38,934 nucleotides of DNA from Waddliaceae bacterium (GCA_963724325.1 CAVRUH010000010.1:1-38934), one strand, 5' to 3'; counted from the first letter of the stretch, positions 1 to 29,726 are shown. The notes: generated from the sequence alone by a model not told the origin. A program made the numbers and translations.

Positions 1-1980
1 CCCCTCAAAATAGCCTTTTTAAAATCAGGATTGTGCAAACAGGCCTCAGCATGGATGGATTCCGATATTACTGAAGTCCCCTTCGTACTAAATTTCAGAG
101 GATGCAATCCCGAAAATGCCGAACCTCTGGAAAAACTCACATACAAAACCCTTTCAAAAATAGCAGAAGAAGGCGTTCCCGAAAATTTAATTGAAAACGC
201 CATCCATCAAGTTGAATTCCACCGTTGCGAAATTACTGGAGACTCCTCGCCCTACGGATTATCCCTTTTTATGCGGGCAGTTCCCCTGAAACAACATGGA
301 GGCCTTCCTGAAGATGGTTTAAAGGCCATTTCACTATGCGAAACTCTACGTCAAAAGTTTAAAAATAACCCTGGATACGTAGGGGAATTGATTCGAAAAT
401 ACTACCTCAATAACCCCCATTTTGTCAGGATATCTCTCATTCCCGATAAATCACTCTCCGAAAAGGAAGCGGCTGATGAAAAAAACAAATTAGATAAGCT
501 ACGCAAAGAAATTAACCCCGATCAAATCATTAAAAAAGCACAAGAGCTCATCGAACTACAGAAAATGGAACATCAAGCTAATCATGACATCCTCCCTAAA
601 GTGACCCTTCAAGACGTTCCTAAAATGGGAAAAGACTACCCATTGACACAGGAGCAATGCGGCAATTTGAAGGTTTTTCATCACACCACATTTACGAATC
701 ATATTGTCTATGCCGATGTAATCATTCCTCTGCCAGAAATTAAAGAAGAGGAGCTTCCATTAGTGCAGCTCTTTGCCCTGTTGCTACCTCAAATTGGTTG
801 CGGAGGACGCGATTATGCCAAAAATCTAGAGTTTATTCAAGCCAATACCGGCGGATTATCAGTTTCAACGACATTAAACCGACAAGCGACTGACGGCAAT
901 ACATTTTTTCCATCCTTTACAATTCATGGGAAGGCGCTGTATCGAAAAGCCGACAAGTTATTTGAATTACTAAAAGACATGTCTCTATCGGCCGATTTTA
1001 CAGATGCAGATAGAATAAAAGAAATCATCTTAAAGCAGTATTCCGGCATGCAGGGAAGCCTGATTCAAAATGCTGTCAGGTACGCCATGAGCATGGCTTC
1101 AAGTGGAATTAATATCCCCTCTTACATAGCGAATGCTTGGGGAGGTCTAAATTACTATTGGTCATTAAAGAATATCGTTGAAAATTATGATAGTGATAAG
1201 TTGTTGAAACAAATGCAAGGACTGCAAAAACGATTGTTATGCCTAAAGGACTCGCATCTTATTTTGGCTTGCGATGAAAAAATGTATGAAGACCTTAAAA
1301 AAACCAATTTTTATGATTTAACAAAAGTTCCAGGCAATGACTTTACTTCGTGGAAAAGTGATTTTAAAGTCGAAAATGTGCCAGCACAAGGTCGTGTAAT
1401 CGCCTCTCCCGTTGCATTTATTTCTCAGGCCTTTGGGACAATACCCTATGTGCATCCAGACAGCCCTTGTTTGTCGGTAGCTTCGCATCTTTTTGATACA
1501 CTTGTCCTCCATCCGGTCATTCGGGAAAAGGGAGGAGCCTATGGAAGTCACGCGAACCTAAGCGCTACTGCTGGAATATTCTCGTTCTATTCCTACCGTG
1601 ATCCTAATATTAGTAAATCATTGAAGGCCTTTGAGGATGCTGTGAAAGGTGTTGTACAAGGTAAATTCACTCTGAGTGATTTGGAGGAGGCTAAGCTTGA
1701 GATGTTCCAGAATATGGATGCTCCTATTTCACCAGGCAGTCGTGCTTATGCTTCGTACAGCTGGCTACGCGAAGGCAAATCAGCTGAGGTTCGCCAAAAG
1801 TGGCGTGAGAGGCTTATTGCCATTACTAAAGAGGATATTGTGAATGCGGTTAAGACACATATTGAACCAAAGGTCCATAGTGCCAGTACAGTAGTGTTAG
1901 CAGGAAACGACCTCCTCCAAAAAGAGAACAAAGTGCTTGCCTCCCAAGGTAAGCCCGCATTAAAAATCGAACAGATTTAA
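1..1980 (+). CDS. M16C (PreP/Cym1-like, insulinase family) zinc metallopeptidase, C-terminal part; 5' end lies outside the window
   Basis: Frame is open from base 1 (PLKIAFLKSGLCKQ...). It has the PreP C-terminal motifs 'IREKGGAYG', 'FYSYRDP', 'TFTNHIVYAD' and 'ILPKVTLQDVP'. The HxxEH site is not in the window. Confidence 0.88.
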   Translation, partial: PLKIAFLKSGLCKQASAWMDSDITEVPFVLNFRGCNPENAEPLEKLTYKTLSKIAEEGVPENLIENAIHQVEFHRCEITGDSSPYGLSLFMRAVPLKQHGGLPEDGLKAISLCETLRQKFKNNPGYVGELIRKYYLNNPHFVRISLIPDKSLSEKEAADEKNKLDKLRKEINPDQIIKKAQELIELQKMEHQANHDILPKVTLQDVPKMGKDYPLTQEQCGNLKVFHHTTFTNHIVYADVIIPLPEIKEEELPLVQLFALLLPQIGCGGRDYAKNLEFIQANTGGLSVSTTLNRQATDGNTFFPSFTIHGKALYRKADKLFELLKDMSLSADFTDADRIKEIILKQYSGMQGSLIQNAVRYAMSMASSGINIPSYIANAWGGLNYYWSLKNIVENYDSDKLLKQMQGLQKRLLCLKDSHLILACDEKMYEDLKKTNFYDLTKVPGNDFTSWKSDFKVENVPAQGRVIASPVAFISQAFGTIPYVHPDSPCLSVASHLFDTLVLHPVIREKGGAYGSHANLSATAGIFSFYSYRDPNISKSLKAFEDAVKGVVQGKFTLSDLEEAKLEMFQNMDAPISPGSRAYASYSWLREGKSAEVRQKWRERLIAITKEDIVNAVKTHIEPKVHSASTVVLAGNDLLQKENKVLASQGKPALKIEQI

Positions 1981-1996
1981 AGACATGGCTTGAGCT

Positions 1997-3847
1997 CGCG
2001 GCAAAGGTTATTTTTTGCATTGACCCACGATTTGCGCTTACAGCGCTACATCTTGGGCTATTATTGAAGGCATCCCTATGGGATGCGCAAAGGTAATATT
2101 AATGGTTGTGTCTTTTGCCGGTGGAATTTCTTGCCCTTTATCCCGTAGGGATTTTTTTCAATAATAGCCCATGATTTGCGCTTACAGCGCTGCATCATGG
2201 GCTATTTTTGAAGGCATCCCTATGGGATGCTCAAAGGTGATATTAATGACTGTGTCTTTTGCTGGTGGAATTTCTTGCTCTTTATCCCGTAGGGATTTTT
2301 TTCAATAATAGCCCATGATGTAGCGCTGTAAGCGCAAATCGTGGGTAATGTCAAAATATTTCCTTAGTCGCGTAGCGACTATTTATCTTATATTAGGTGC
2401 CGCTACGCGGCAAAGGTTATTTTTTGCATTGACCCACGATTTGCGCTTACAGCGCTGCATCATGGGCTATTTTTGAAGGCATCCCTATGGGATGCGCAAA
2501 GGTGACATTAATGGCCGTGTCTTTTGCCGGTGGGATTTCTTGCCCTTTATCCCGTAGGGATTTTTTTCAATAATAGCCCATGATGTAGCGCTGTAAGCGC
2601 AAATCGTGGGTAATGTAAAATATTTCCTTAGTCGCGTAGCGACTATTTATCTTATATTAGGTGCCGCTACGCGGCTAAGGTTATTTTTTGCATTGACCCA
2701 CGATTTGCGCTTACAGCGCTGCATCATGGGCTATTATTGAAGGCATCCCTATGGGATGCGCAAAGGTAATATTAATGGCTGTGTCTTTTGCCGGTGGGAT
2801 TTCTTGCCCTTTATCCCGTAGGGATTTTTTTCAATAATAGCCCACGATTTGCGCTTACAGCGCTACATCATGCGCTATTATTGAAGGCATCCCTATGGGA
2901 TGCTCAAAGGTGATATTAATGACTGTGTCTTTTGCTGGTGGAATTTCTTGCTCTTTATCCCGTAGGGATTTTTTTCAATAATAGCCCATGATGTAGCGCT
3001 GTAAGCGCAAATCGTGGGTAATGTCAAAATATTTCCTTAGTCGCGTAACGACTATTTATCTTATATTAGGTGCCGCTACGCGGCAAAGGTTATTTTTTGC
3101 ATTGACCCACGATTTGCGCTTACAGCGCTACATCATGGGCTATTATTGAAGGCATCCCTATGGGATGCGCAAAGGTGACATTAATGGCTGTGTCTTTTGC
3201 CGGTGGAATTTCTTGCCCTTTATCCCGTAGGGATTTTTTTCAATAATAGCCCATGATGTAGCGCTGTAAGCGCAAATCGTGGGTAATGTCAAAATATTTC
3301 CTTAGTCGCGTAGCGACTATTTATCTTATATTGGGTGCCGCTACGCGGCAAAGGTTATTTTTTGCATTGACCCACGATTTGCGCTTACAGCGCTGCATCA
3401 TGGGCTATTATTGAAGGCATCCCTATGGGATGCGCAAAGGTGACATTAATGGCTGTGTCTTTTGCCGGTGGAATTTCTTGCCCTTTATCCCGTAGGGATT
3501 TTTTTTAATAATAGCCCACGATTTGCGCTTACAGCGCTACATCATGCGCTATTATTGAAGGCATCCCTATGGGATGCTCAAAGGTGATATTAATGACTGT
3601 GTCTTTTGCTGGTGGAATTTCTTGCTCTTTATCCCGTAGGGATTTTTTTCAATAATAGCCCATGATGTAGCGCTGTAAGCGCAAATCGTGGGTAATGTCA
3701 AAATATTTCCTTAGTCGCGTAGCGACTATTTATCTTATATTAGGTGCCGCTACGCGGCAAAGGTTATTTTTTGCATCGACCCACGATTTGCGCTTACAGC
3801 GCTACATCGTGGGCTATTATTGAAGGCATCCCTATGGGATGCGCAAA
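1997..3847. repeat. Mosaic tandem array of palindromic REP/BIME-like units: 14 copies of a 34 bp hairpin core with two alternating linkers and a ~673 bp super-period
   Basis: Core CCCACGATTTGCGCTTACAGCGCT(A/G)CATCATGGG occurs forward at 2024, 2168, 2433, 2697, 2841, 3106, 3371, 3515, 3780 and reverse at 2312, 2577, 2985, 3250, 3659. Spacings are 144 or 120-121 bp. No ORF >=60 aa. It lies between convergent genes. Confidence 0.95.
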
Positions 3848-3938
3848 TTTGTACAGAATACTAGGCTTATATATTTAAGGCCTTGAGCCTTTTTATGAAT
3901 CAATAAAAATCTCGTGGAAAAGCACTAATTTACTTCAC

Positions 3939-4394
3939 TTAAATCATCTTCAAAATATTTCTGATTGATACAGGAATCATTAATTTCCATTTGCTACCCA
4001 CACTTTTGTTTGCTCTTGTGGGTCGATGATCCTCAACTGCTACCTCAAACTTTTCACAAATGATTTCAAAAGATGGTTCATCATAAAGATCTAAAAACTG
4101 ATACACTTTATAAGGATGGTCCTCAGGAATTTCAATATATTCACTTTTTAATGCCTCTTGCAATAAGTCAGAATGAGAGGTTAATTCACAAAGGGTGCAT
4201 GTCCAATGACTTTTATCTACAAAATAAATAACATTTTTAAAAGAAATTTTTAGTACCCGAGCATCCCATGCTTCAATAGTAAAAAGAAGATTATCGCTAT
4301 CTAGTGTATAAGCATATGAAATAAATTCTGAGTCATCAAGTCCAACCGGCAATTTTATTTTATTTCTTTCGATATTCATATCTATAAAAACCAT
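3939..4394 (-). CDS. Putative RHS immunity protein, paralogue B' (the start may be MNIERN at 4379)
   Basis: Shares GLDDS..ISY.Y.L, WD, ELTS.S and YKVYQFLDL.DEPSFEIICEKFE motifs with three neighbouring genes; last gene downstream of the RHS toxin. Confidence 0.65.
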   Translation of the reverse strand: MVFIDMNIERNKIKLPVGLDDSEFISYAYTLDSDNLLFTIEAWDARVLKISFKNVIYFVDKSHWTCTLCELTSHSDLLQEALKSEYIEIPEDHPYKVYQFLDLYDEPSFEIICEKFEVAVEDHRPTRANKSVGSKWKLMIPVSIRNILKMI

Positions 4395-4476
4395 AACGAT
4401 ATTTTTTCAAATGTTGTTTTCATTTAACCCTTGTCAGAATCAATTTTTGGCAATTTTCTATACATCCCAAGACTTT

Positions 4477-4857
4477 TTATAATTTACTCGAATCAGGTCG
4501 ATAATCCTCAACCTCTACCTCAAACTTTTCACAAATAATTTCAAAGGATGGTACGTCATCAAGATCCAAAAACTGATATACCTTGTATTGATCGTATTCT
4601 CGTATTTTGGGATAAGGATCCTTCAAAGCTTGTTCTAGGAAAGCTGAATGCGATGTCAACTCATAAAAGCCACAGATCAACTGACATCCCACATCAATAA
4701 ATCTAAGTACTTTAAAAAATGAAATTTTTATAGAACTTGCATCCCATCCTTGAATATTAAATACAAGTGTATCATCATTTAATATATACATGTACGAAAT
4801 CAGATCAGAATCATCTAGTCCCGATCCGACTTTAATTTTTACTCTTTTAGTTTCCAT
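4477..4857 (-). CDS. Putative RHS immunity protein, paralogue A'
   Basis: 126 aa, near-copy of 5428..5808 at a 951 bp offset; AGGAG RBS upstream. Confidence 0.7.
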   Translation of the reverse strand: METKRVKIKVGSGLDDSDLISYMYILNDDTLVFNIQGWDASSIKISFFKVLRFIDVGCQLICGFYELTSHSAFLEQALKDPYPKIREYDQYKVYQFLDLDDVPSFEIICEKFEVEVEDYRPDSSKL

Positions 4858-4949
4858 AAATCTCCTATATTACTGACGTCTGGTCCCATGCTTCTTCATT
4901 TAATCTTATCGACTCCAGTGATACAGCCTTTTCAACAAATAGTTACAAA

Positions 4950-5336
4950 CTATAAATCGAGCAAACTTGGACTACGATCCCCAACATTTATTTCAAACTT
5001 TTCACAAATAACTTCAAAGGAGGGTTCATCATAAAGATCTAAAAACTGATAGACTTTGTAAGGATGGTTCTCAGGTACTTCCAAATATGTTGTATTTAAA
5101 GCCTCTTTAAGGTTTTCTGACTGTGAAGTCAATTCGCAAAGTAAACACGTCCAATGAGTGCCTTTATCTATAAAATGAATGACGTCCCTAAAAGTTATCG
5201 TTAGAACATGTGAATCCCAAGCCTGAATTATAAAAATAAGACTATTTTGATCTAACGCATAAGTATACGAGATGAAATCTGAGTCATCAAGACCAACAGG
5301 TAATTTTATTGAATTTCTTTCGATATTCATATCCAT
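4950..5336 (-). CDS. Putative RHS immunity protein, paralogue B
   Basis: 128 aa, same family motifs; most similar to 3939..4394. Confidence 0.7.
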   Translation of the reverse strand: MDMNIERNSIKLPVGLDDSDFISYTYALDQNSLIFIIQAWDSHVLTITFRDVIHFIDKGTHWTCLLCELTSQSENLKEALNTTYLEVPENHPYKVYQFLDLYDEPSFEVICEKFEINVGDRSPSLLDL

Positions 5337-5427
5337 AAAAACCCTAACGATATTTTTTCAAATGTTGTTTTCATTTAACCCTTGTCAGAATCAATTTTTG
5401 GCAATTTTCTATACATCCCAGGACTTT

Positions 5428-5808
5428 TCATAATTTACTTGAATCAGGTCGATATTTCTCAACTGCTACTTCAAACTTTTCACAAATGATTTCATAGGAT
5501 GGCTCATCATCAAGATCCAAAATCTGATATACCTTATATTTTCCCTTTTCTTGTATTTTAGGATAGGGTTCCTTCAAAGCTTGTTCTAGGAAGGTTGAAT
5601 GAGACGTCAATTCATAAAAGCCACAGGTCCATTGGCTTCCCGTATCAATAAATCTCATTACATTAAAAAATGAAATTTTTATAGAACTTGCATCCCATCC
5701 TTGAATATTAAATACAAGTGTATCATCATTTAATGTATACATGTACGAAATCAGATCAGAATCATCTAGTCCCGATCCGACTTTAATTTTTACTCTTTTA
5801 GTTTCCAT
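5428..5808 (-). CDS. Putative cognate RHS immunity protein, paralogue A
   Basis: Small acidic protein starting 17 bp after the RHS stop with an AGGAG RBS, the canonical immunity-gene position. Confidence 0.75.
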   Translation of the reverse strand: METKRVKIKVGSGLDDSDLISYMYTLNDDTLVFNIQGWDASSIKISFFNVMRFIDTGSQWTCGFYELTSHSTFLEQALKEPYPKIQEKGKYKVYQILDLDDEPSYEIICEKFEVAVEKYRPDSSKL

Positions 5809-5825
5809 AAATCTCCTATTTAAAA

Positions 5826-8800
5826 CTAAGCTCCGGGGAATCTTTCACCTGGTAAAAATCCTGTACCGTCCCCTAGATTGTAATTTTCTGGTTTACACTT
5901 TCTTATATTAGTCTTTTTCCATGGCTCCAAGGGATGAGCTCGATACTCTACATGATAATGCTGTTCATGGTGTCTTGGATTATACACATCTGCAGTTTCA
6001 AATGCATGCTTTTCTGGACGAATGCGAATATTATCAGCTGTGTAGATGCGGCCTTTATGATCTCGAGGCAACTGTGGCAATAGATCTTTAGGATTTTCTG
6101 GAAATACATTCTTGGGTAAAGACCGAGTGGAAACAGCATTCTTAACATTAGATCCTTCGTAAATAGTTAGAGATCTGTTCGCACAAATACCAGCACTAGT
6201 TTCCAAAGTTTGTGCTCCTGCGGCAGCAGGAGCGCGGAGTAGGCTGATGCCAGCTTCGGCAGCCTGAGCGCCGCCATAATATGCTGCAGCGCTTACTGTA
6301 GCTCGAACAAGGCTCACTACAACAATCCCCATTCCCAAATACCGGCCATTAGTCGCTCCTATATAATGTGCACGGTCATACCGGTCCATGTCTTCCCATA
6401 TTTCAGAGGGCATTTCCATGGAGTTTTTTGAATATGCACCAATAGGATCCATCATCCCATCAATGGCACCATAACATAATCCGCTTCCATGACATAAAAG
6501 CTCCATCGACGTTCTGCCGCATTCTGCAGCTCCACTGCAAAAACTTTCAAATCCCTCCGTCCAAAGTCCATTTGGATCAATATAAACAATCGGACTATTC
6601 TGAACATAAGCATAAAGATTCGTACCATCCTCAAACCAAATAGGATCAGGACCGATCCACTTGCCAATTTCAGGATCATAATACCTTCTGCCAAAATATC
6701 CCAAGCCAGTTTCACTATCAATACGTTTTCCACTAAAGCGCCATGGATTAATAGAATCAGTAGTTTTAACTCCTGCATAATCAAAAATTTCTTCCACACC
6801 ATAAGCTGAATATCTATATGTCTCAATAATATTTCCAACTTCTGTCAAAATGGAAACCACATTCCCACGATGATCATGAATAGGCACATATATCTTACTA
6901 TCAAATTCAAAAGCAGCGCTATTTTTCAAGCTCCCAGGAACCATGATTTTCAACTCTTTAATTTTTCCATGACGGTCCATGGCGCCAATCTCAGTATCAG
7001 TGGCATAAATGTACTTTTCGAATAAAGTTTCTTTCCAAATACCATCAATACTTTCTAAGACCTGCTTTGTCATCCTTCTATGGAAGGCATCATACTCAAA
7101 TTTCACCTTGGTTTTGCCTTCTACAACTTCAACTAACCGATCTAAAGTATCAAACTTACAATCCTGATTCTTAGCACTTCTCAAAACCGAATTTCGATTT
7201 CCATTCTGATCATATCGATATATGACAGGTCCCTGAGACAACAGTTGATTCAGTACGTTATTCTCATAAATAACATCATCCATTTTCGTTCGATTAAATC
7301 TCGAATCATAATTATAGGTATGATGCACAACACCATTCTCTGCAATCAATTGATCCAATGCATCATAGGCATAATTGTGAACAAGCGTTCCAACAGCATC
7401 CTCACTTCTATATTTGACCAATCGATTGCATGAATCATAACCGTCGACAGGAATATTCTGCGAAAAATAAGGTGTGCATATATCCGTCAAACGAAGCGCA
7501 TAGTCATAGGAATAGCTCGCTTCTCCTATCAAAAAGGGAAGTGCAACTTTCTTGATTTTTCCCGATAAATCATATGTATATTGATAATGGTAATGCCTTT
7601 TGCCTGTATCACGCGATAACTTTACCAAATTTCTCGCATCGTATTCACACGAAATCGAGGATCTATCTGGAAGAATCAACTTTCGAGTGCGGCCGAGATT
7701 ATCATAATAATATTTTAACTCAATGCCGTTATCTAAAATTTCTCTAACAACTCTATCATTCACATCATACTCGCGACATGTTATGACTTTGGTAATTAAA
7801 TTCGAGACTGAAATGATATTATCATTCGAATCATACTCATATTGATGATGGAATCCACCTGCACTGTCAATTTCATCTATCAAACGACCCAAGGCATTAT
7901 ACAGAAAGGCTATTTCTGCTCCATCCGGCTTGACGATGCGAGATATTTTCCCAAGACAATTATATTCTTTTCTGGTGATCTTGCAATCAGGTGTCCCAAC
8001 GGCTTCAATAATAGTAATCTCCTGATTTCTCTCATCATACTCAAACCTTGTTTCAATAGGTTTTTTGTCTTCATCAAGTTGGTCCTCGAACCTATTCACA
8101 AGATTTCCGGCTCCATCATATTGATGGGTCACACGACGCATGAGGTTTCCATATGGGCTTTTATACTGTTCCGCTTCTAAATCGCCCTTTTCATCGTAAA
8201 TGCTGATTGTACTGTTTCCTAGAGCATCAATTTCTTCTTCGTATTTAACGCAATTACCTCGTGAATTGTGATAATTATAATCTCTAAAAAATCGGGTTGC
8301 TTCACGATTTGGATGGATAATCTTTAGAAGCTGATCATAGCAATCATACTCATAAATCTCTTGAATAATGGCTTCTGAAGACTTCATTGATTTACTAGTT
8401 ATATTTCCATTTTCGTCATAGGTATAATTCAAATGGCTGAAAACTTTTCCAAGTGTATCTTCAATCCGTTCTTCAAGAACTCGATCAAGGAAGTCGTAAA
8501 GATTAATCGTTTTCCTATAATAACCGTGAGAATATTTTTCCCACGTTTCATGCTTTCTCCCTAAGGTATCATATACGTATCGCGACTCTGCGTCGCCCTT
8601 GATTGTTTTAATTAATCTTCCGGCATGATCATAAGTATATTTTGTAATATTTCCACTCCCATCTCTTTCTTGAAGCAGATGGAAAGCATTATAAACCCAA
8701 GTATTTTTTGAAACAAATATTCTATTTGAATCAAACGTCTGCTTCAATATCAATCTGTCCTTGAAATCGTATTTGTACAGGATGTAAGAACCATTTGGTA

Positions 8801-9866
8801 AAACTGATTGCTTTAAATTCCCTCGCAAGGTGTATAAATGCGACTCAACAGCTCCACAAGGATGGACAATTAGCGTAGGTTTGCCAAGTGCGTTGTATGT
8901 CATTCTTGTTATATGACCGTTGCCGTCTTCTTTTAGGATAACATTATTGAATTCATCGTAGCCGATTGTTTCGATTGATTTTGCTTCGGGATGTGTTGTT
9001 TTCTCAAGTCGATTAAATTCGTCATATTGATATCTTGTGGTATTGCCATAGATATCTGTGAAAGTGATTTTGTTTCCACGCAAGTCGTATGTAAACTGTT
9101 TTGAAAGGACAGTTCCATTGTCAAAAATTTGCGATTCATTAATTAGTCGATTTGAATAGTCATACGTATATGTTGTATAATAATCATTATCTGAAGTTTT
9201 GGAATAAATTTTATTTCTGTTTGCATCATATTTGTACTTAGAGATTTCTCCAATTGCGTTTTTCTCCCAAAGTACATTTCCCATGGAATCGTATTTCCAC
9301 TCCAAAGAGTATGCTAACTGGTAATCACTGCCATACACGTCATGTCGAACTGGACGTCCTGAATGGGAATAAGTAATGACTGTCCTTTTTAGCAAGACCT
9401 CATCCTCTGTTTCCAAATCAAGATATTTTTCCTCAATGACCTCAGGCAAACCTTTTGGCTCTTGTCTGGTGTAGCTAATTCTCTTTATATGTCTTTCGGA
9501 AACTCCTGAGAGGTTGTTGATATCCTCATTACTACCGTCATCTTTTATTTCCAGATTAACTGTTCCACACCCAGCGTATTCGAAATAATTTCGCACTAAT
9601 ATTTTATCATTTTTCTTGATATATCTTGTCTTGAGATGATCTGATTTGGGATAATACGTACTATATATTTGTTTGATGCCATCATTTTCAAAGCAAATTT
9701 GGTCATGGGAGGTATAGGAAAGGAATTTAGAATATACATCGAAATTCCCCATTCCCGTCAAGTCGCCGGATGTTTTTTCTTCAATGGGATTTCCTCGTTC
9801 ATCATATTCGTATTCTTTGATGAGAAGGGGGGTTTTTCCAGCATCAAAAAGAGTCCGTTTTTTCAA
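5826..9866 (-). CDS. RHS/YD-repeat polymorphic toxin with a C-terminal His-rich (HYH) toxin domain; probably N-terminally truncated
   Basis: Many YxYD..G repeats; RHS core end 'NPWRFSGKRIDSETGLGYFGRRYYDPEIGKWIGPDP...NLYAYVQNSPIVYIDPNGL'; then a Gly/Ala-rich segment and a distinct tip. Confidence 0.92.
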   Translation of the reverse strand: MKKRTLFDAGKTPLLIKEYEYDERGNPIEEKTSGDLTGMGNFDVYSKFLSYTSHDQICFENDGIKQIYSTYYPKSDHLKTRYIKKNDKILVRNYFEYAGCGTVNLEIKDDGSNEDINNLSGVSERHIKRISYTRQEPKGLPEVIEEKYLDLETEDEVLLKRTVITYSHSGRPVRHDVYGSDYQLAYSLEWKYDSMGNVLWEKNAIGEISKYKYDANRNKIYSKTSDNDYYTTYTYDYSNRLINESQIFDNGTVLSKQFTYDLRGNKITFTDIYGNTTRYQYDEFNRLEKTTHPEAKSIETIGYDEFNNVILKEDGNGHITRMTYNALGKPTLIVHPCGAVESHLYTLRGNLKQSVLPNGSYILYKYDFKDRLILKQTFDSNRIFVSKNTWVYNAFHLLQERDGSGNITKYTYDHAGRLIKTIKGDAESRYVYDTLGRKHETWEKYSHGYYRKTINLYDFLDRVLEERIEDTLGKVFSHLNYTYDENGNITSKSMKSSEAIIQEIYEYDCYDQLLKIIHPNREATRFFRDYNYHNSRGNCVKYEEEIDALGNSTISIYDEKGDLEAEQYKSPYGNLMRRVTHQYDGAGNLVNRFEDQLDEDKKPIETRFEYDERNQEITIIEAVGTPDCKITRKEYNCLGKISRIVKPDGAEIAFLYNALGRLIDEIDSAGGFHHQYEYDSNDNIISVSNLITKVITCREYDVNDRVVREILDNGIELKYYYDNLGRTRKLILPDRSSISCEYDARNLVKLSRDTGKRHYHYQYTYDLSGKIKKVALPFLIGEASYSYDYALRLTDICTPYFSQNIPVDGYDSCNRLVKYRSEDAVGTLVHNYAYDALDQLIAENGVVHHTYNYDSRFNRTKMDDVIYENNVLNQLLSQGPVIYRYDQNGNRNSVLRSAKNQDCKFDTLDRLVEVVEGKTKVKFEYDAFHRRMTKQVLESIDGIWKETLFEKYIYATDTEIGAMDRHGKIKELKIMVPGSLKNSAAFEFDSKIYVPIHDHRGNVVSILTEVGNIIETYRYSAYGVEEIFDYAGVKTTDSINPWRFSGKRIDSETGLGYFGRRYYDPEIGKWIGPDPIWFEDGTNLYAYVQNSPIVYIDPNGLWTEGFESFCSGAAECGRTSMELLCHGSGLCYGAIDGMMDPIGAYSKNSMEMPSEIWEDMDRYDRAHYIGATNGRYLGMGIVVVSLVRATVSAAAYYGGAQAAEAGISLLRAPAAAGAQTLETSAGICANRSLTIYEGSNVKNAVSTRSLPKNVFPENPKDLLPQLPRDHKGRIYTADNIRIRPEKHAFETADVYNPRHHEQHYHVEYRAHPLEPWKKTNIRKCKPENYNLGDGTGFLPGERFPGA

Positions 9867-25384: not shown

Positions 25385-26362
25385 ATGTTTAAGACAAGAA
25401 TTACTGACCTCTTTGGCATCAAATATCCCATCATCCAGGGTGGCCTCATGTGGCTTGCAAGAGCAGAACTTGCCGCTGCTGTCGCTGAAGCCGGTGGAAT
25501 CGGATTCATGACAGCCCTCACCCACCCCAATGCCGAGGCACTTCGAGCTGAAATCAAAAAACTCAGAACCCTCACTGACAAACCCTTTGGAGTCAATCTC
25601 ACCTTCCTCCCATCCCTACGACAACCCGATTATCCTGCCTACATCAAAGTCTGCATCGAAGAAGGGGTAAAATTTATCGAGACTGCCGGTAGAAATCCCG
25701 AACCCGTACTCCCCCCGCTTAAGGCCGCAGGCATCAAAGTCATCCACAAGTGCACCAGCGTCAGACACGCCATTAAAGCTCAAGCTATAGGTTGCGATGC
25801 CGTCAGCATCGACGGCTTTGAGTGTGCCGGACATCCAGGAGAAGATGACGTAACATCCCTGATCCTCATTCCCCGCACAAGAGACGCAATAGACATTCCA
25901 ATTATTTCCTCAGGAGGCTTTGGCGATGGACGCGGCCTTGTTGCTGCTCTAGCACTAGGAGCCGATGCCATGAATATGGGAACGAGATTTGTAGCCACCA
26001 AAGAATGTCCTGCTCACGAAAATGTGAAACTAGCCATCAAGGGAGCCAAAGAAACCGACACTTGCCTTATCATGCGCAGCCTAAAAAATAGCGAACGTGT
26101 TCTAAAAAGTAAGAATGCCGAAAAAGTACTTGAGATCGAGTCCACAGGCCATGCAACAATCGATGACATCAGGCCCTATGTAGCTGGTATGGAAGGGGTC
26201 AAAATGTATACAGGGGGTGAAATGGAAAAAGGAGTCCTTTCCATAGGACAGGTCATTGGATTAATTAATGACATACCCACAGTGGCCGAATTGATTCAGC
26301 GCATCATCTCTGATGCGACTGAGATTATTCAAACCAAACTCCCGAGAATTATTATCCGTTAA
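25385..26362 (+). CDS. Nitronate monooxygenase / FabK-like flavin oxidoreductase
   Basis: 'YPIIQGGL', 'AVAEAGGIG', 'TDKPFGVNL', 'GFECAGHPG', 'SSGGFGDGRG', 'MGTRFVATKE'. Confidence 0.9.
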   Translation: MFKTRITDLFGIKYPIIQGGLMWLARAELAAAVAEAGGIGFMTALTHPNAEALRAEIKKLRTLTDKPFGVNLTFLPSLRQPDYPAYIKVCIEEGVKFIETAGRNPEPVLPPLKAAGIKVIHKCTSVRHAIKAQAIGCDAVSIDGFECAGHPGEDDVTSLILIPRTRDAIDIPIISSGGFGDGRGLVAALALGADAMNMGTRFVATKECPAHENVKLAIKGAKETDTCLIMRSLKNSERVLKSKNAEKVLEIESTGHATIDDIRPYVAGMEGVKMYTGGEMEKGVLSIGQVIGLINDIPTVAELIQRIISDATEIIQTKLPRIIIR

Positions 26363-28175
26363 CACCATTAGCTGGAGCTGGATTAACTTTTTCAAGAATA
26401 TACAGACGACCATAAGTAGCCATCACATCGTTAGCAGATGCTAAATTTTTATTTGCCGTTGGATGCATATCGTCTATAGATTTCCAACTACCACCTATTT
26501 TTGCATTAGCTACATAGTGACCACCACCATTGCCAACATGACCTCCAGCTATACCAACAACTTTATATTGAACAGGAGCACCAGCGATGGGTAATGTAAC
26601 AATATCATTTGCTGGCAGTACCACCCTTAGATAGTTAGTTACACCATAGTCATTGACCCTTGGTAAAGGAATAAATAGTAGTGGTGGCGCCACTCCTGTC
26701 AATTCAATCTTATCATCGTACTTATTAGCACCATTAATTTGGTTATTGAATGCAGCTTTTGTTAGCCCCCATGGTAGCTTAGCATTTTTCTTTTTAGGAT
26801 CGTACTTTTTGTATTCTTCAGGATCTAAGTTTACGCTTCTAAGGGCAGCATCGGAAACATCATCCTTTTTGCCTTTAGTTTTTTCAGCTAGCGTATATTT
26901 TTTTAATTCACCGGGTTTTTGTTTAAAAAATTCAGTCAAAACATGTTGGAAGGAAATACTGTTTTGTTCATTGATTATATCTGTCCATTCTTTAACTTTA
27001 TTTGCCCTTCTCAATGGTAAAACTATACCCGCCTCAGCTGCAATATCACGCTCCAACAGAGCATCCTGATCAAAACTTGCCTGTGCTATCTGAGCTGCTT
27101 CCATTTGCTGTGAATTCAAGGTTAACAGCTTAACCACCGGCATATTGACCGGAGGAAGCATTGGCTGATCCAGCATTTCTTCTTGTCTATCCACATAACC
27201 ATTTGCAAATGTTCTAGTTACAACTTGTTTAATACCATAATTCCCTGAAATATTGAGCTGACTAAAAATAATTTTTAAGAAGTCTGCAACATCTTGCTGC
27301 TTATACACATCACCACCCAATGTACCAATTTGATCCTCTGGCAAGTTTTGGATAGATGAAAGAATCCGATCACGCAAGATGTTAATATCCTTGGAACCAA
27401 GTCCCGCCTCTAGGCCTATGTGGTAGTATTTAAGGGCCGTGGCAACTGAATTTTGAAATCCAGGATCAGAAGCCTTCAAATGATTAATAAATTCTTTTGA
27501 AGCAAATAGTATTTGTAAAAGTGAATCTGCATAACAAGACATTCTTTTATTGCACAAAAGTGCTGGCTTATTTAGCGCAACAATACCTCCAAGTCTTGCG
27601 ATTAAGGGGTCTAATTGTGGTTTAAGAGCTGGATTTTCTGCTATAATGCGAAGTATTTGAAACTTAATTTTTGTTTTAATCACTGCAAAATTCTTATCAT
27701 ACCCTTCGAATACTTTTGCAATGAATACATCAACCAATTGCGTCCACTTTGCAGGATCTGTTTCTGTTTTAAGTGTTTCATTTAGCATTTTATTTAATTC
27801 GTCACTAACAGGAGTAGGTGGCAGCGCCTCAGTCTCTTCTGGGTTACCATAGAATATTCTTCTGAAAAATGCAGCTATGGCTGAAAATACAGATTTAATC
27901 CAAGCCACAAAACGTTGACCTACTGTAAGAGGTTTTGCCAATTGCGGTTGAACGGAATTATTGATGACATTTACGGGGTCAAGATGGAGAATTTGCATAA
28001 CTTCGCTAACCTTTGGTTTTTGAAATCGATCATACTTAGCAATCAATTGCTGATGAGTAGCGATAACCTCTGGTTTTGTAGTTTGCTTATACTTGGGAGC
28101 TCTCGGAACATCTATTCCTAATCTAGCAAAATCATTAGCATTGTATGCTCCTAGATCTACGTTTAAAGAACTCAT
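26352..28175 (-). CDS. USP (peptidase C19)-like deubiquitinase effector candidate 1
   Basis: Cys box 'LCNKRMSCYADSLLQILF', 'QQDVADFL', His box 'GGGHYVANAKIGGSWKSIDD'. Start placed at MSSLN, after GAGGTG. Confidence 0.78.
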   Translation of the reverse strand: MSSLNVDLGAYNANDFARLGIDVPRAPKYKQTTKPEVIATHQQLIAKYDRFQKPKVSEVMQILHLDPVNVINNSVQPQLAKPLTVGQRFVAWIKSVFSAIAAFFRRIFYGNPEETEALPPTPVSDELNKMLNETLKTETDPAKWTQLVDVFIAKVFEGYDKNFAVIKTKIKFQILRIIAENPALKPQLDPLIARLGGIVALNKPALLCNKRMSCYADSLLQILFASKEFINHLKASDPGFQNSVATALKYYHIGLEAGLGSKDINILRDRILSSIQNLPEDQIGTLGGDVYKQQDVADFLKIIFSQLNISGNYGIKQVVTRTFANGYVDRQEEMLDQPMLPPVNMPVVKLLTLNSQQMEAAQIAQASFDQDALLERDIAAEAGIVLPLRRANKVKEWTDIINEQNSISFQHVLTEFFKQKPGELKKYTLAEKTKGKKDDVSDAALRSVNLDPEEYKKYDPKKKNAKLPWGLTKAAFNNQINGANKYDDKIELTGVAPPLLFIPLPRVNDYGVTNYLRVVLPANDIVTLPIAGAPVQYKVVGIAGGHVGNGGGHYVANAKIGGSWKSIDDMHPTANKNLASANDVMATYGRLYILEKVNPAPANGVNG

Positions 28176-28253
28176 CTTACACACCTCATATTTGTTTTAT
28201 GCACTAATTCTAACATACAATTGTTAAGAAATTATAAATTTAAATTAATTTTA

Positions 28254-29726
28254 AGGAAAGGAACGGTAAAGTTTGACCCCCTAAAATTGGAGGTCATACC
28301 ATGTTTCAGTCCAATGTGCTTTTCAAGGCTTATTCGCACTGTTCAGGGCTTAGAAAAAGAGCTTGGATTACGAAAGTAATCGTAATCATTCAGAAGGCAA
28401 CTAATTTATTGTTGTTAGCTGAGGGAGAGGGGGCCACGGCTACTTCTTTGGGCCAACGCCCCTCCGGGGGCGGTAAAATAATCATTCGATGCCTGAAAAT
28501 AATTCACCGTGCCCCTTCGGTCGAGGGGGCCACGGCTACTTCTTTGGGTAATCTCATACTAACCAATAAATATATAAAAATAAATAGAAATAAAGCCCCA
28601 AATGGGTTATCTCATTGTAGTAACCAAACCATCAAGGAGGTGTAAACCATGGGGCATAGTTCATATTTAACATATTGTATAGGAAAAGGTAAAGCATATC
28701 CTTTCGGATTTAAGTTAGATGCGGTGTTCGCAGCTGAGGAACTTGGCAAAAAACCAGCGGCTAAAAAGTTTAAAATAGCTTTAAATACATTGAAATCTTG
28801 GATTAAAGAATTCCAAAAACATGGCAAGCAAGGCCTAATCGATAAGAGAAAGGGACCCAATTTTATTCCACATAAAATTCCTCCTGACGAGGAAGAAAGG
28901 ATAGTTAGCATTCGCACGATGGCACCTTGTTTTGGCCCTAATAGAATAAAGTTCTACTTCAATGTAAATTGTTCTGTTGGAGCTATTCGTCGGGTTATTC
29001 GATCTCATAATCTTACTAAGAAACAAAAGAAAAAGCAGGAGAAAAAAAGAGACTTAAGAGCTGTTAAGGCTAAGCGTGCATCGATGACGTATCTGCAGAT
29101 GGATGTAAAATACTTAACGGACATTCCTAACTATTGGGAACAGATAAAACCTATGGGATTACCCAGGTTCCAATATACCGTCCGTGATTCTAAGTCAGGA
29201 ATGCTATTCTTGGGGTATTCTGATGAGCTATCGGAATTAAATGCACGTACGATGATTGATCATATAATAAGCGAAATGAAGCTCGATTTACCCTTTGATA
29301 TCGAGAAACTTAATGTGCAAACGGATAATGGATCTGAATTTAGCGGTCAAGCAAGGAGAGTAGAAACAGCTCCCTTTGTTCAAATGATTGAAAAGACCCA
29401 TGGGGCTAATCATAATTACATAAGACCTGGTCATTGTAATGCAAATGCGGATGTTGAATCATCACATCAAACGATTGAAGTTGAATTTTTTGACTTAATA
29501 AAGGTTAAGAATCGAGATGACTTCTTCAAAAAGATCGAGTCGTATCGGTTATATTTTAATTTCACGAGGGTGAATTTTTCTAAAGGTAAAAAAACACCGC
29601 AACAAATTTGCGCAAGTGATTGGAATATAGATGTTTCTTATAATTTTTCCTTGATAAAAACTGTGGATTTAGATAAAATAAGTACATTCTCGTATCAACG
29701 GGGTCAATCTTTACCTGATTTTACCG
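28254..29726 (+). mobile_element. Insertion sequence (~1473 bp, IS481-like DDE) with imperfect 27 bp terminal IRs and a 14 bp target-site duplication
   Basis: Left end AGGAAAGGAACGGTAAAGTTTGACCCC; right end reverse complement CGGTAAAATCAGGTAAAGATTGACCCC (inner 16 bp match 15/16). Flanking direct repeat TTAAATTAATTTTA at 28240-28253 and 29727-29740. Confidence 0.85.
28301..28645 (+). CDS. Possible IS passenger/leader ORF (114 aa)
   Basis: GGAGG RBS 7 bp before the ATG; stops 3 bp before the transposase start; contains the in-frame repeat EGATATSLG twice. Could be non-coding. Confidence 0.3.
   Translation: MFQSNVLFKAYSHCSGLRKRAWITKVIVIIQKATNLLLLAEGEGATATSLGQRPSGGGKIIIRCLKIIHRAPSVEGATATSLGNLILTNKYIKINRNKAPNGLSHCSNQTIKEV

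Follow-up and report, generated by a model that had tools for sequence, protein, structure and literature searches.

A probably orphaned REP/BIME-like array of three-hairpin repeats in a Waddliaceae genome and its candidate partner, a two-domain Y1 enzyme

A 1.85 kb tandem array of hairpins has been analyzed between convergent genes of a Waddliaceae bacterium (genome G000; positions 1997..3847). With a probability of about 0.78, it belongs to an orphaned REP/BIME family of an enzyme with two Y1 domains, which would have cut and spread the repeat as single-stranded DNA, the repeat being then probably amplified head-to-tail at this place. Positions are those of the window, i.e., the whole stretch of 38,934 nucleotides that was analyzed. 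The array itself is a genuine tandem pile-up of a three-hairpin repeat. As no gene of the TnpA-Y1 subclass 1.2 is present in the G000 assembly, the link with the enzyme rests on other genomes. Taken alone, the array is an ordinary BIME-like architecture; what is new here is a chlamydial two-domain clade keeping both HUH motifs and both tyrosines, together with the repeat family specific to it and an orphan array that shows a higher-order period. The present case appears to tie a chromosomal BIME-like array to an IS200-side enzyme clade, in a subclass published as lacking repeats, and so bears on how REP/BIME repeats arose from IS200-like transposons.

The array contains fourteen copies of a 34-nt core, starting at 2024, 2168, 2312, 2433, 2577, 2697, 2841, 2985, 3106, 3250, 3371, 3515, 3659 and 3780. 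As claimed in an earlier note on this DNA, their orientations follow the order FFRFRFFRFRFFRF and two types of linkers separate them: all eight A linkers are 110 nt long, each located after an F core, and all five B linkers are 86-87 nt long, each located after an R core. No core match was obtained in 20 mononucleotide shuffles of the window. The BIME-like architecture between convergent genes described in the same note also stands. A CRISPR array or a known non-coding RNA was considered and rejected, the linkers being of two repeated types and not unique spacers, and none of six Rfam matches reaching the gathering score. A scan for promoters and terminators gave 12 and 17 consensus matches, all of them repeat copies, with no sign of function.

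The natural unit of the array is an arm of ~95 nt composed of a first hairpin (H1, with a 5-bp stem and a GNA loop), an A/T spacer ending in TAG, a second hairpin (H2), about 20 A-rich nt and a third hairpin (H3). H2 corresponds to the core and is a 34-nt bulged CCC...GGG hairpin. Two inward-facing arms, with 19 nt between both H3 hairpins, constitute a long element (L, 209-210 nt) which folds as a single hairpin at -85.4 kcal/mol (z = -16.8), none of 200 shuffles being equally good. Central-deletion forms of this element have 89 nt (M, H1-core-H1) or 36-37 nt, the latter without core. The M form is the L form minus 121 nt lying between direct repeats at the core ends and, among the solo M copies shown, the core has one orientation in five out of six and the opposite one in the sixth. 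Since a deletion at either repeat would give either core orientation, the strand switching formerly invoked for the cores at 2168, 2841 and 3515 is unnecessary: these cores belong to 89-nt central-deletion forms which occur solo elsewhere, in either orientation. The same central-deletion route has been noted for 'double-foot' REPs (Quentin et al., 2018; PMC6006769). The higher-order period decomposes into 144 + 265 + 264 = 673, and the 48-nt flank found before each element of the array (Table 1) also lies ahead of most dispersed copies in G000.

Table 1. Features of the array and of its surroundings in the window (L, long form; M, medium form; strand as given, "." for none).
Feature	Position	Strand	Remark
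Whole array	1997..3847	.	a partial long element followed by M L L M L L M L, with a 48-nt one-sided captured flank before each
First element, truncated (right arm only)	1997..2084	-	half of H3, core 2024-2057, H1 2072-2084
48-nt one-sided flank 'x' (middle of linker A)	2092..2139	+	again at 2236, 2501, 2765, 2909, 3174, 3439, 3583
M1, medium form H1-core-H1	2140..2228	.	121-nt central deletion; short-read contig 2076-2261, 0 differences
L1, long form, gene-less REPtron-like doublet	2284..2493	.	two inward-facing three-hairpin arms
L1 left arm	H1 2284-2296; H2/core 2312-2345; H3 2367-2379		
L1 right arm	H3 2399-2411; core 2433-2466; H1 2481-2493		
L2, long form	2549..2757	.	
M2, medium form	2813..2901	.	
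L3, long form	2957..3166	.	
L4, long form	3222..3431	.	
M3, medium form	3487..3575	.	
L5, long form, right end of the array	3631..3840	.	short-read contigs cross the boundary
Higher-order block 1	1997..2669	+	block 2, 2670-3343; partial block 3, 3344-3847
Solo medium-form copy of the same family	29827..29915	.	elsewhere in the window
Left flanking gene	1..1980	+	3' part of a PreP-like M16C peptidase gene
Right flanking gene, convergent	3939..4394	-	151-aa ORF lacking a Pfam match; the final one of four small ORFs past the RHS-repeat gene

The 673-bp higher-order repeat claimed previously holds in part: its blocks are backed by common SNPs, but the third one is truncated (FFRF) and the pattern is mosaic. 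Differences amount to 16 in 674 columns for blocks 1 and 2, to 8 in 504 for block 2 and the partial block 3, and to 14 in 504 for blocks 1 and 3. The A linkers at the second position (2202, 2875 and 3549) show 0-1 differences mutually and 5-8 with the other five. The A linker at 3405, the first of block 3, has a single difference from the linker at 3140 and four from its higher-order counterparts; being nearest to the former, it makes the higher-order repeat a mosaic. The array copies are 97-99% alike and are therefore recent. Short-read contigs match the array without any difference at 2076-2261, 2738-2838, 3525-3680 and 3551-3656, and three distinct A-linker haplotypes are recovered in them. 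Two stretches, 3761-3911 and 3774-3996, each with one difference, extend over the right boundary. The matching runs are possibly the source samples themselves. As none of these contigs spans the whole array (nor crosses the left boundary), its copy number is unconfirmed. The head-to-tail junction has no second occurrence in G000. In addition, a freshwater short-read run contains core-like pieces of 40-54 nt with other flanks.

A genome-wide search, which the earlier note had advised, revealed about 17 distinct sites beyond the array. Of the 43 hits given by the arm profile on G000, 17 belong to the array and the remaining 26 to 17 sites elsewhere. Two of these sites recur as duplicates across contigs C6 and C11, and core or pattern matching contributed two further ones. 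Contigs C6 and C11 share a 10.1-kb overlap at 99.5% identity (C6:12388-22495 and C11:1-10105), which is likely a duplicated assembly end or a strain variant. The sites listed lie between ORFs, so that the repeat is an extragenic dispersed palindromic unit, found both as inverted pairs with linkers and in BIME-2-like tandem arrays; its dispersed copy number is modest beside that of E. coli REPs. Several copies, located between tandem paralogues, have a flank of up to 65 nt in common on one side. At the 13 sites lined up, the hallmarks of DDE-type MITEs are missing, with no outer (terminal) inverted repeat and no target duplication. G000 also holds several other palindrome arrays of 1-3 kb, made of unrelated repeats, and calling the array unusual for a chlamydial genome was in this respect an overstatement.

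Other repeats of this genome deserve mention. A second hairpin repeat (C1:1077600-1083610, 5 sites) is interleaved with the arm family between tandem paralogues and resembles an inverted repeat found upstream of subclass-2.1 Y1 genes in genome G061 (L180); no subclass-2.1 Y1 gene was found in the G000 assembly. Orphan units with an H1-nAG-H2 grammar and a different sequence are present at C1:246264, C1:248956 and C4:52769, which suggests further lost subclass-1.2 genes. At C5:4407-5547, five tandem 228-bp copies have a consensus resembling the 3' part of a tRNA with its flank.

Across the phylum, the exact pattern was found in none of 400 genomes outside G000, including its congener G001, and the family is therefore patchy; G061 and G410, discussed below, are not recognisably in that sample. 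BLASTN searches in 60 relatives returned three hits of 20-24 nt, coding or due to chance. At the orthologous preP 3' region, G001 carries a different long palindrome (L289), from the most abundant repeat family of G000, and no array is present in G002, G004, G061 and G410. The downstream genes differ at this place, so that no empty target site can be defined.

Neither tblastn nor a six-frame profile search detected a subclass-1.2 gene or remnant in the G000 assembly, which is 84.6% complete. Weak hits at C1:775-776 kb were rejected as a gene remnant, being chance matches inside ABC-permease-like and efflux-like ORFs. The absence of a cognate transposase from the window, pointed out earlier, was likewise verified. 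The IS481-like gene by the solo copy (28649-29743) was discarded as a partner: it has 6 copies with their own ends, five of which are not beside the repeat. The G000 copies of this transposase are 99-100% identical, and a second group shares ~44% identity. The sole Y1 gene of the assembly encodes a RAYT (C5:207304-207846) flanked by a short perfect hairpin unrelated to the arms, which has a foot of the GGAG type and 148 matches. As this gene is bracketed by another repeat and its flanks are without H1-nAG-H2 unit, it was rejected as the partner of the array; the arm profile has no hit on contig C5. Its locus (L001, C5:207304-209473), with a class-2 RAYT and a GGAG-footed repeat, is in itself a clear REPtron in a chlamydial genome, and the arrays formed by the latter repeat reach 2.9 kb (at C1:769430-772304, where a 215-bp unit is present in 13 copies).

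The proposed link to an HUH Y1 transposase was upheld via other genomes, in which a cognate Y1 gene is flanked by the unit. The expectation of a classical RAYT was not, the matching enzyme being an IS200-like, two-domain protein of subclass 1.2. A pattern scan of genome contigs returned at least 115 stretches, mostly histidine-kinase coding DNA, and L048, in G061, is the one true relative among the matches listed. Its element has 76 DNA matches in G061, where four arms surround a 293-aa ORF (P0003, locus L179) with two Y1_Tnp domains. The adjacent arms point inward (H1-H2-H3-gene-H3-H2-H1), a group II intron being inserted between the P0003 stop codon and the downstream H3. A protein search revealed two more two-domain genes in G410 (L238 and L239, 56-57% identity) with the same arms on both sides. 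In such an intact locus, inward arms bracket the gene, and the long element of the window is that pair, with 19 nt replacing the gene. With one gene in G061 and two diverged ones in G410, these loci have neither the near-identical multicopy gene nor the asymmetric ends of an IS200/IS605 insertion sequence or MITE (PATE).

A profile built from 10 arms of G000 only was run against the 500-nt flanks at 53 Chlamydiota loci that are subclass-1.2-like, after removal of 8 duplicates and of the second L179 copy. Eleven hits were obtained at E<0.01, all in the flanks of L179, L238 and L239 (six flanks out of six), L179 having been found through DNA likeness and thus not being independent, and L238 and L239 by protein search. 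The next best hit had E = 0.2, and none of the 49 single-domain loci was hit. A fourth two-domain gene (L183, 35% identity) gave no profile hit and carries a different unit. The arm family is thus found at three gene loci, in two genomes. Judging from matching coordinates, the listed relatives of G061 coincide with genomes of family f3, not of f1, the family of G000.

Gene-less doublets accompany these genes. G410 has nine of them, and a medium form adjoins the L238 gene. In the doublets of G061 and G410, the arms are, as judged by eye, joined a few bases past H3; in one G410 doublet, also by eye, the upstream end belongs to one gene locus and the downstream end to the second. Arms are present as well on five contigs from a single metagenome, with no Y1 gene within 2 kb. 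In G061, 18 loci were examined and the ends of 14 doublets could be located: nine of the 14 are enclosed in an element that has outer inverted repeats of its own, two of these carriers showing by eye an 8-9-bp target duplication, and in the other five such outer ends are missing at one side or at both. Many doublet copies in G061 are thus spread by a DDE MITE, and dispersal need not be by the Y1 enzyme. At L147-L157, the small element carrying doublets as cargo is itself often inserted in other hairpin repeats. The G061 group II intron (RT of 457 aa; L179:4306-6183, L310, L311, L312) is found 3-4 nt from the foot of H3 at four places, i.e., beside the gene and at the center of three gene-less doublets. 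This targeting of a hairpin foot presumably recalls class IIC introns. An insertion sequence with a 454-aa ORF is located inside H3 in three of six split doublets examined (L308, L309, L313).

The two-domain family comprises 20 database proteins of 276-312 aa with two Y1_Tnp stretches, one more being found by profile. H55/H57, H203/H205, Y115, Y263 and Q267 are invariant in the 20 sequences. The C-terminal domain carries in 20/20 the DH[IVL]H, WQ and YxxxQxxHH motifs, which are the signature of subclass 1.2 (HUH, W, Y---Q--HH), the assignment to this subclass being here by motif alone; the length departs from the ~148-aa single domain of that subclass. Among the loci found with this domain, 96 of 98 have this signature. 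The N-terminal domain has a Y---[E/D]--RH motif, in which Tyr+4, the position of the third metal ligand in IS608 TnpA (PMC6006769), is Glu in 12 and Asp in 8 of the 20 sequences. A midpoint-rooted FastTree of 136 domains shows each of the two as monophyletic (21/21, with support of 0.94 and 0.90) and does not group them as sisters. P0003 scores 101 bits against the NF033573 IS200 model (cut-off 55) and 55 against the NF047646 RAYT model (cut-off 80), and it is not a class-2 enzyme (RAYT, Y---NP). Its predicted model (pLDDT 89.6, pTM 0.86) has ISDra2 and IS608 TnpA as best fold matches. Because IS608 TnpA is a dimer with hybrid sites (PMC3597680), the natural reading is that the two-domain protein would be a single-chain pseudo-dimer.

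On the substrate side, 30 arms from G000, G061, G410 and one metagenome were compared. Pairing is observed in 98.4% of 690 cells, and 12 of the 23 pairs change on both sides; neither the pairing nor the covariation score was reached by any of 500 shuffles, and slid controls pair at 30-43%. 'Further pair types' are not above shuffles (204/500). As the arms are related and the structure was derived from them, the covariation is supportive and is not proof. Template switching can produce covariation among related palindromes even when no selection acts. The TAG at the H2 foot never varies (30/30 arms), the foot being ATAG or TTAG. By contrast with this invariance, the H1 loop (C-GNA-G) is GTA in the window and GGA or GAA in most relatives. 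GTAG, formerly taken as the recognised tetranucleotide, is therefore a loop and not a guide. GT[AG]G is not found at the 5' hairpin foot, and GTAG accounts for 12 of 73 cases across subclass-1.2 loci.

The inward unit extends beyond this family. Using an H1-spacer-nAG-H2 rule written after viewing the Chlamydiota flanks, it was found at 31/53 loci in Chlamydiota (both sides, 21/49), 10/14 in Planctomycetota (9/14) and 2/31 in Bacteroidota (0/31), with an H1-H2 spacing of 16-17 nt in 62/73. For the same phyla, distant sequences gave 0/37, 1/11 and 0/27 (1/75 in total) and shuffles gave 1/530, 3/140 and 2/310 (6/980 in total); flanks of G000 ORFs gave 3/587. Four subclass-2.1 genes and the resident RAYT have no unit (0/5). 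In Bacteroidota, 13 of 31 loci show inverted similarity between flanks and, by eye, variant hairpin units. Subclass 1.2 has been listed as 'no REP', long fusion proteins having been discarded (Quentin et al., 2018; PMC6006769), and the weak result in Bacteroidota may explain why no REPs were reported there, the subclass being in that study mostly from Bacteroidetes and Cyanobacteria. It probably corresponds to IS200 Group 3, a 'RAYT-like' group with no duplicates and abundant flanking 16-mers (Bertels et al., 2017; PMC5581495). The literature consulted gave no description of a three-hairpin repeat accompanying subclass 1.2, nor of any Y1 protein with two domains, nor of a chlamydial REPtron; the supplements of PMC6006769 and PMC5581495 may list such repeats and fusions.

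For the preferred reading, i.e., an orphaned family of the Y1-Y1 enzyme, the following sequence of events is proposed. The enzyme would fold as a single-chain version of the IS608/ISDra2 TnpA dimer, bind the strand that displays both the GNA loops and the TAG foot, and nick and rejoin single-stranded DNA, so excising and inserting doublets. Its gene would have been lost from the G000 lineage or be unassembled. One long element with its 48-nt captured flank would have been duplicated in tandem (265 bp), one copy would have been shortened to 144 bp by deletion of the 121 bp separating the direct repeats of the core ends, and the M-L-L block of 673 bp would have undergone a further copying with gene conversion, the simplest route being host slippage or unequal recombination. 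This host route is favored for the making of the array, given that the G000 assembly has no gene, that no empty site was found, that the matches listed in the gene-bearing genomes include no array of this family and that G000 has arrays of unrelated repeats. A host role of the array, as a terminator or as a topological buffer between the convergent genes, would be purely hypothetical.

The main rival is that the enzyme itself built the array by rolling-circle-like nicking and strand transfer, the gene being later lost or unassembled. A process of this type has been modelled for E. coli BIME-2 (Ton-Hoang et al., 2012; PMC3333891), the junction is 2 nt short of a simple slippage via the shared AAATT end, and both the recent origin of copies that are 97-99% alike and an assembly that is 84.6% complete are in its favor. 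However, the gene was not found in G000, and no long tandem array of the arm family exists among the matches listed in G061 and G410, which have it; arrays of several unrelated repeats in G000 denote a general host tendency, and the mosaic SNP pattern fits unequal recombination. Enzyme-driven amplification is thus possible, with clearly less than an even chance. Less probable still, and in our view unlikely, is that the doublet is a passive hairpin cargo of DDE-type MITEs or of neighbor-gene duplication, the Y1 enzyme acting at its own gene only. The nine G061 doublets enclosed by outer inverted repeats, two of them with target duplication, are what such a process would leave, as are the G000 copies sharing a one-sided flank between tandem paralogues; yet five G061 doublets lack such ends on at least one side, none was seen at the 13 G000 sites, and spacing and pairing are kept across three genomes, in agreement with the gene-flanking arms.

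It is very improbable that the resident RAYT processes the arm repeat as a second REP family. The assembly has no Y1 gene other than the one encoding this enzyme, whose own repeat is also found in arrays of a similar kind, but the flanks of this gene, as described above, consist of the unrelated GGAG-footed hairpin, without arm-profile hit or H1-nAG-H2 unit. The chances are equally slight that an assembly error has inflated the array from one or two real elements. Such an error is suggested by the lack of a read or contig spanning the array and by likely frameshifts elsewhere in the window (rpoC in pieces); against it, the copies carry distinct and patterned SNPs, short-read contigs reproduce the three A-linker haplotypes and the right boundary, and the head-to-tail junction occurs nowhere else in G000.

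Compared with known systems, the orphaned family is reminiscent of E. coli BIME-2 and atypical BIMEs with TnpA-REP, which likewise have inverted units, two kinds of linkers and tandem as well as dispersed copies, and of the E. coli REPtron, in which a single-copy Y1 gene is bracketed by units with a bulged long hairpin (PMC3333891). Here, however, the unit has three hairpins (~95 nt) instead of one and its foot is TAG/nAG, not GTAG; the partner is a two-domain class 1 enzyme (Y---Q--HH), whereas the REPtron has a class 2 monomer (Y---NP), and the gene is missing from the G000 assembly. In its workings the system would be like a REPtron that has BIME-2 arrays, yet it lacks two features required of a REP, namely a foot of GTAG and an enzyme of class 2. 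The C-terminal motifs are shared with TnpA-Y1 subclass 1.2 (PMC6006769), with genes here bracketed by a composite repeat and a clade of fused two-domain proteins. IS200 Group 3 is similarly IS200-like, without duplicates and with abundant 16-mers; the repeat structure is not described in the portion of that paper drawn on here (PMC5581495). The fold is that of IS608 and ISDra2 TnpA (PDB 2vjv, 2xqc; PMC3597680), obligate dimers with hybrid HUH and Tyr sites that the two-domain chain would mimic. In IS200/IS605 elements, the ends are asymmetric with a single hairpin and the insertion sequence multiplies, whereas here the same inward-facing unit lies on both sides, the genes are diverged and number one or two per genome, and gene-less doublets are dispersed. 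REPINs of Pseudomonas and subclass-2.4 'double-foot' REPs also consist of an inverted doublet forming one long hairpin, with a central-deletion derivative, but differ in enzyme class and unit structure.

A further-reaching reading, which is tentative and which we consider doubtful rather than probable, is that a chlamydial clade of one-chain, pseudo-dimeric HUH enzymes with two complete, unequal sites reads a three-hairpin single-stranded signal via two different cuts, excises its own gene leaving an empty doublet, and rolls doublets into arrays. The two sites would be formed by His-His of domain 1 with Tyr/Gln of domain 2, and by His-His of domain 2 with Tyr/Glu-or-Asp of domain 1. If so, the enzyme would be a naturally occurring link from the dimer of IS200 to the RAYT monomer, and would provide a compact single-stranded DNA recombinase made of one chain, with a readable, covarying substrate. 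Enzyme and repeat would form a matched pair with natural compensatory variants, and in a fused dimer each active site can be mutated alone, which a homodimer does not permit. Under the orphaned-family reading, such repeats can outlast their gene and still form arrays.

The window also contains several other loci. At 3939-9866, four small ORFs, alternating and paralogous and with no match in Pfam, lie past an RHS-repeat gene (1346 aa), an arrangement reminiscent of a toxin-immunity tail. At 34578-38825, the RNA polymerase beta-prime gene (rpoC) is in several pieces, likely because of sequencing frameshifts. Finally, three tandem ORFs at 26352-34347 have ubiquitin carboxyl-terminal hydrolase domains and likely encode host-directed deubiquitinases.
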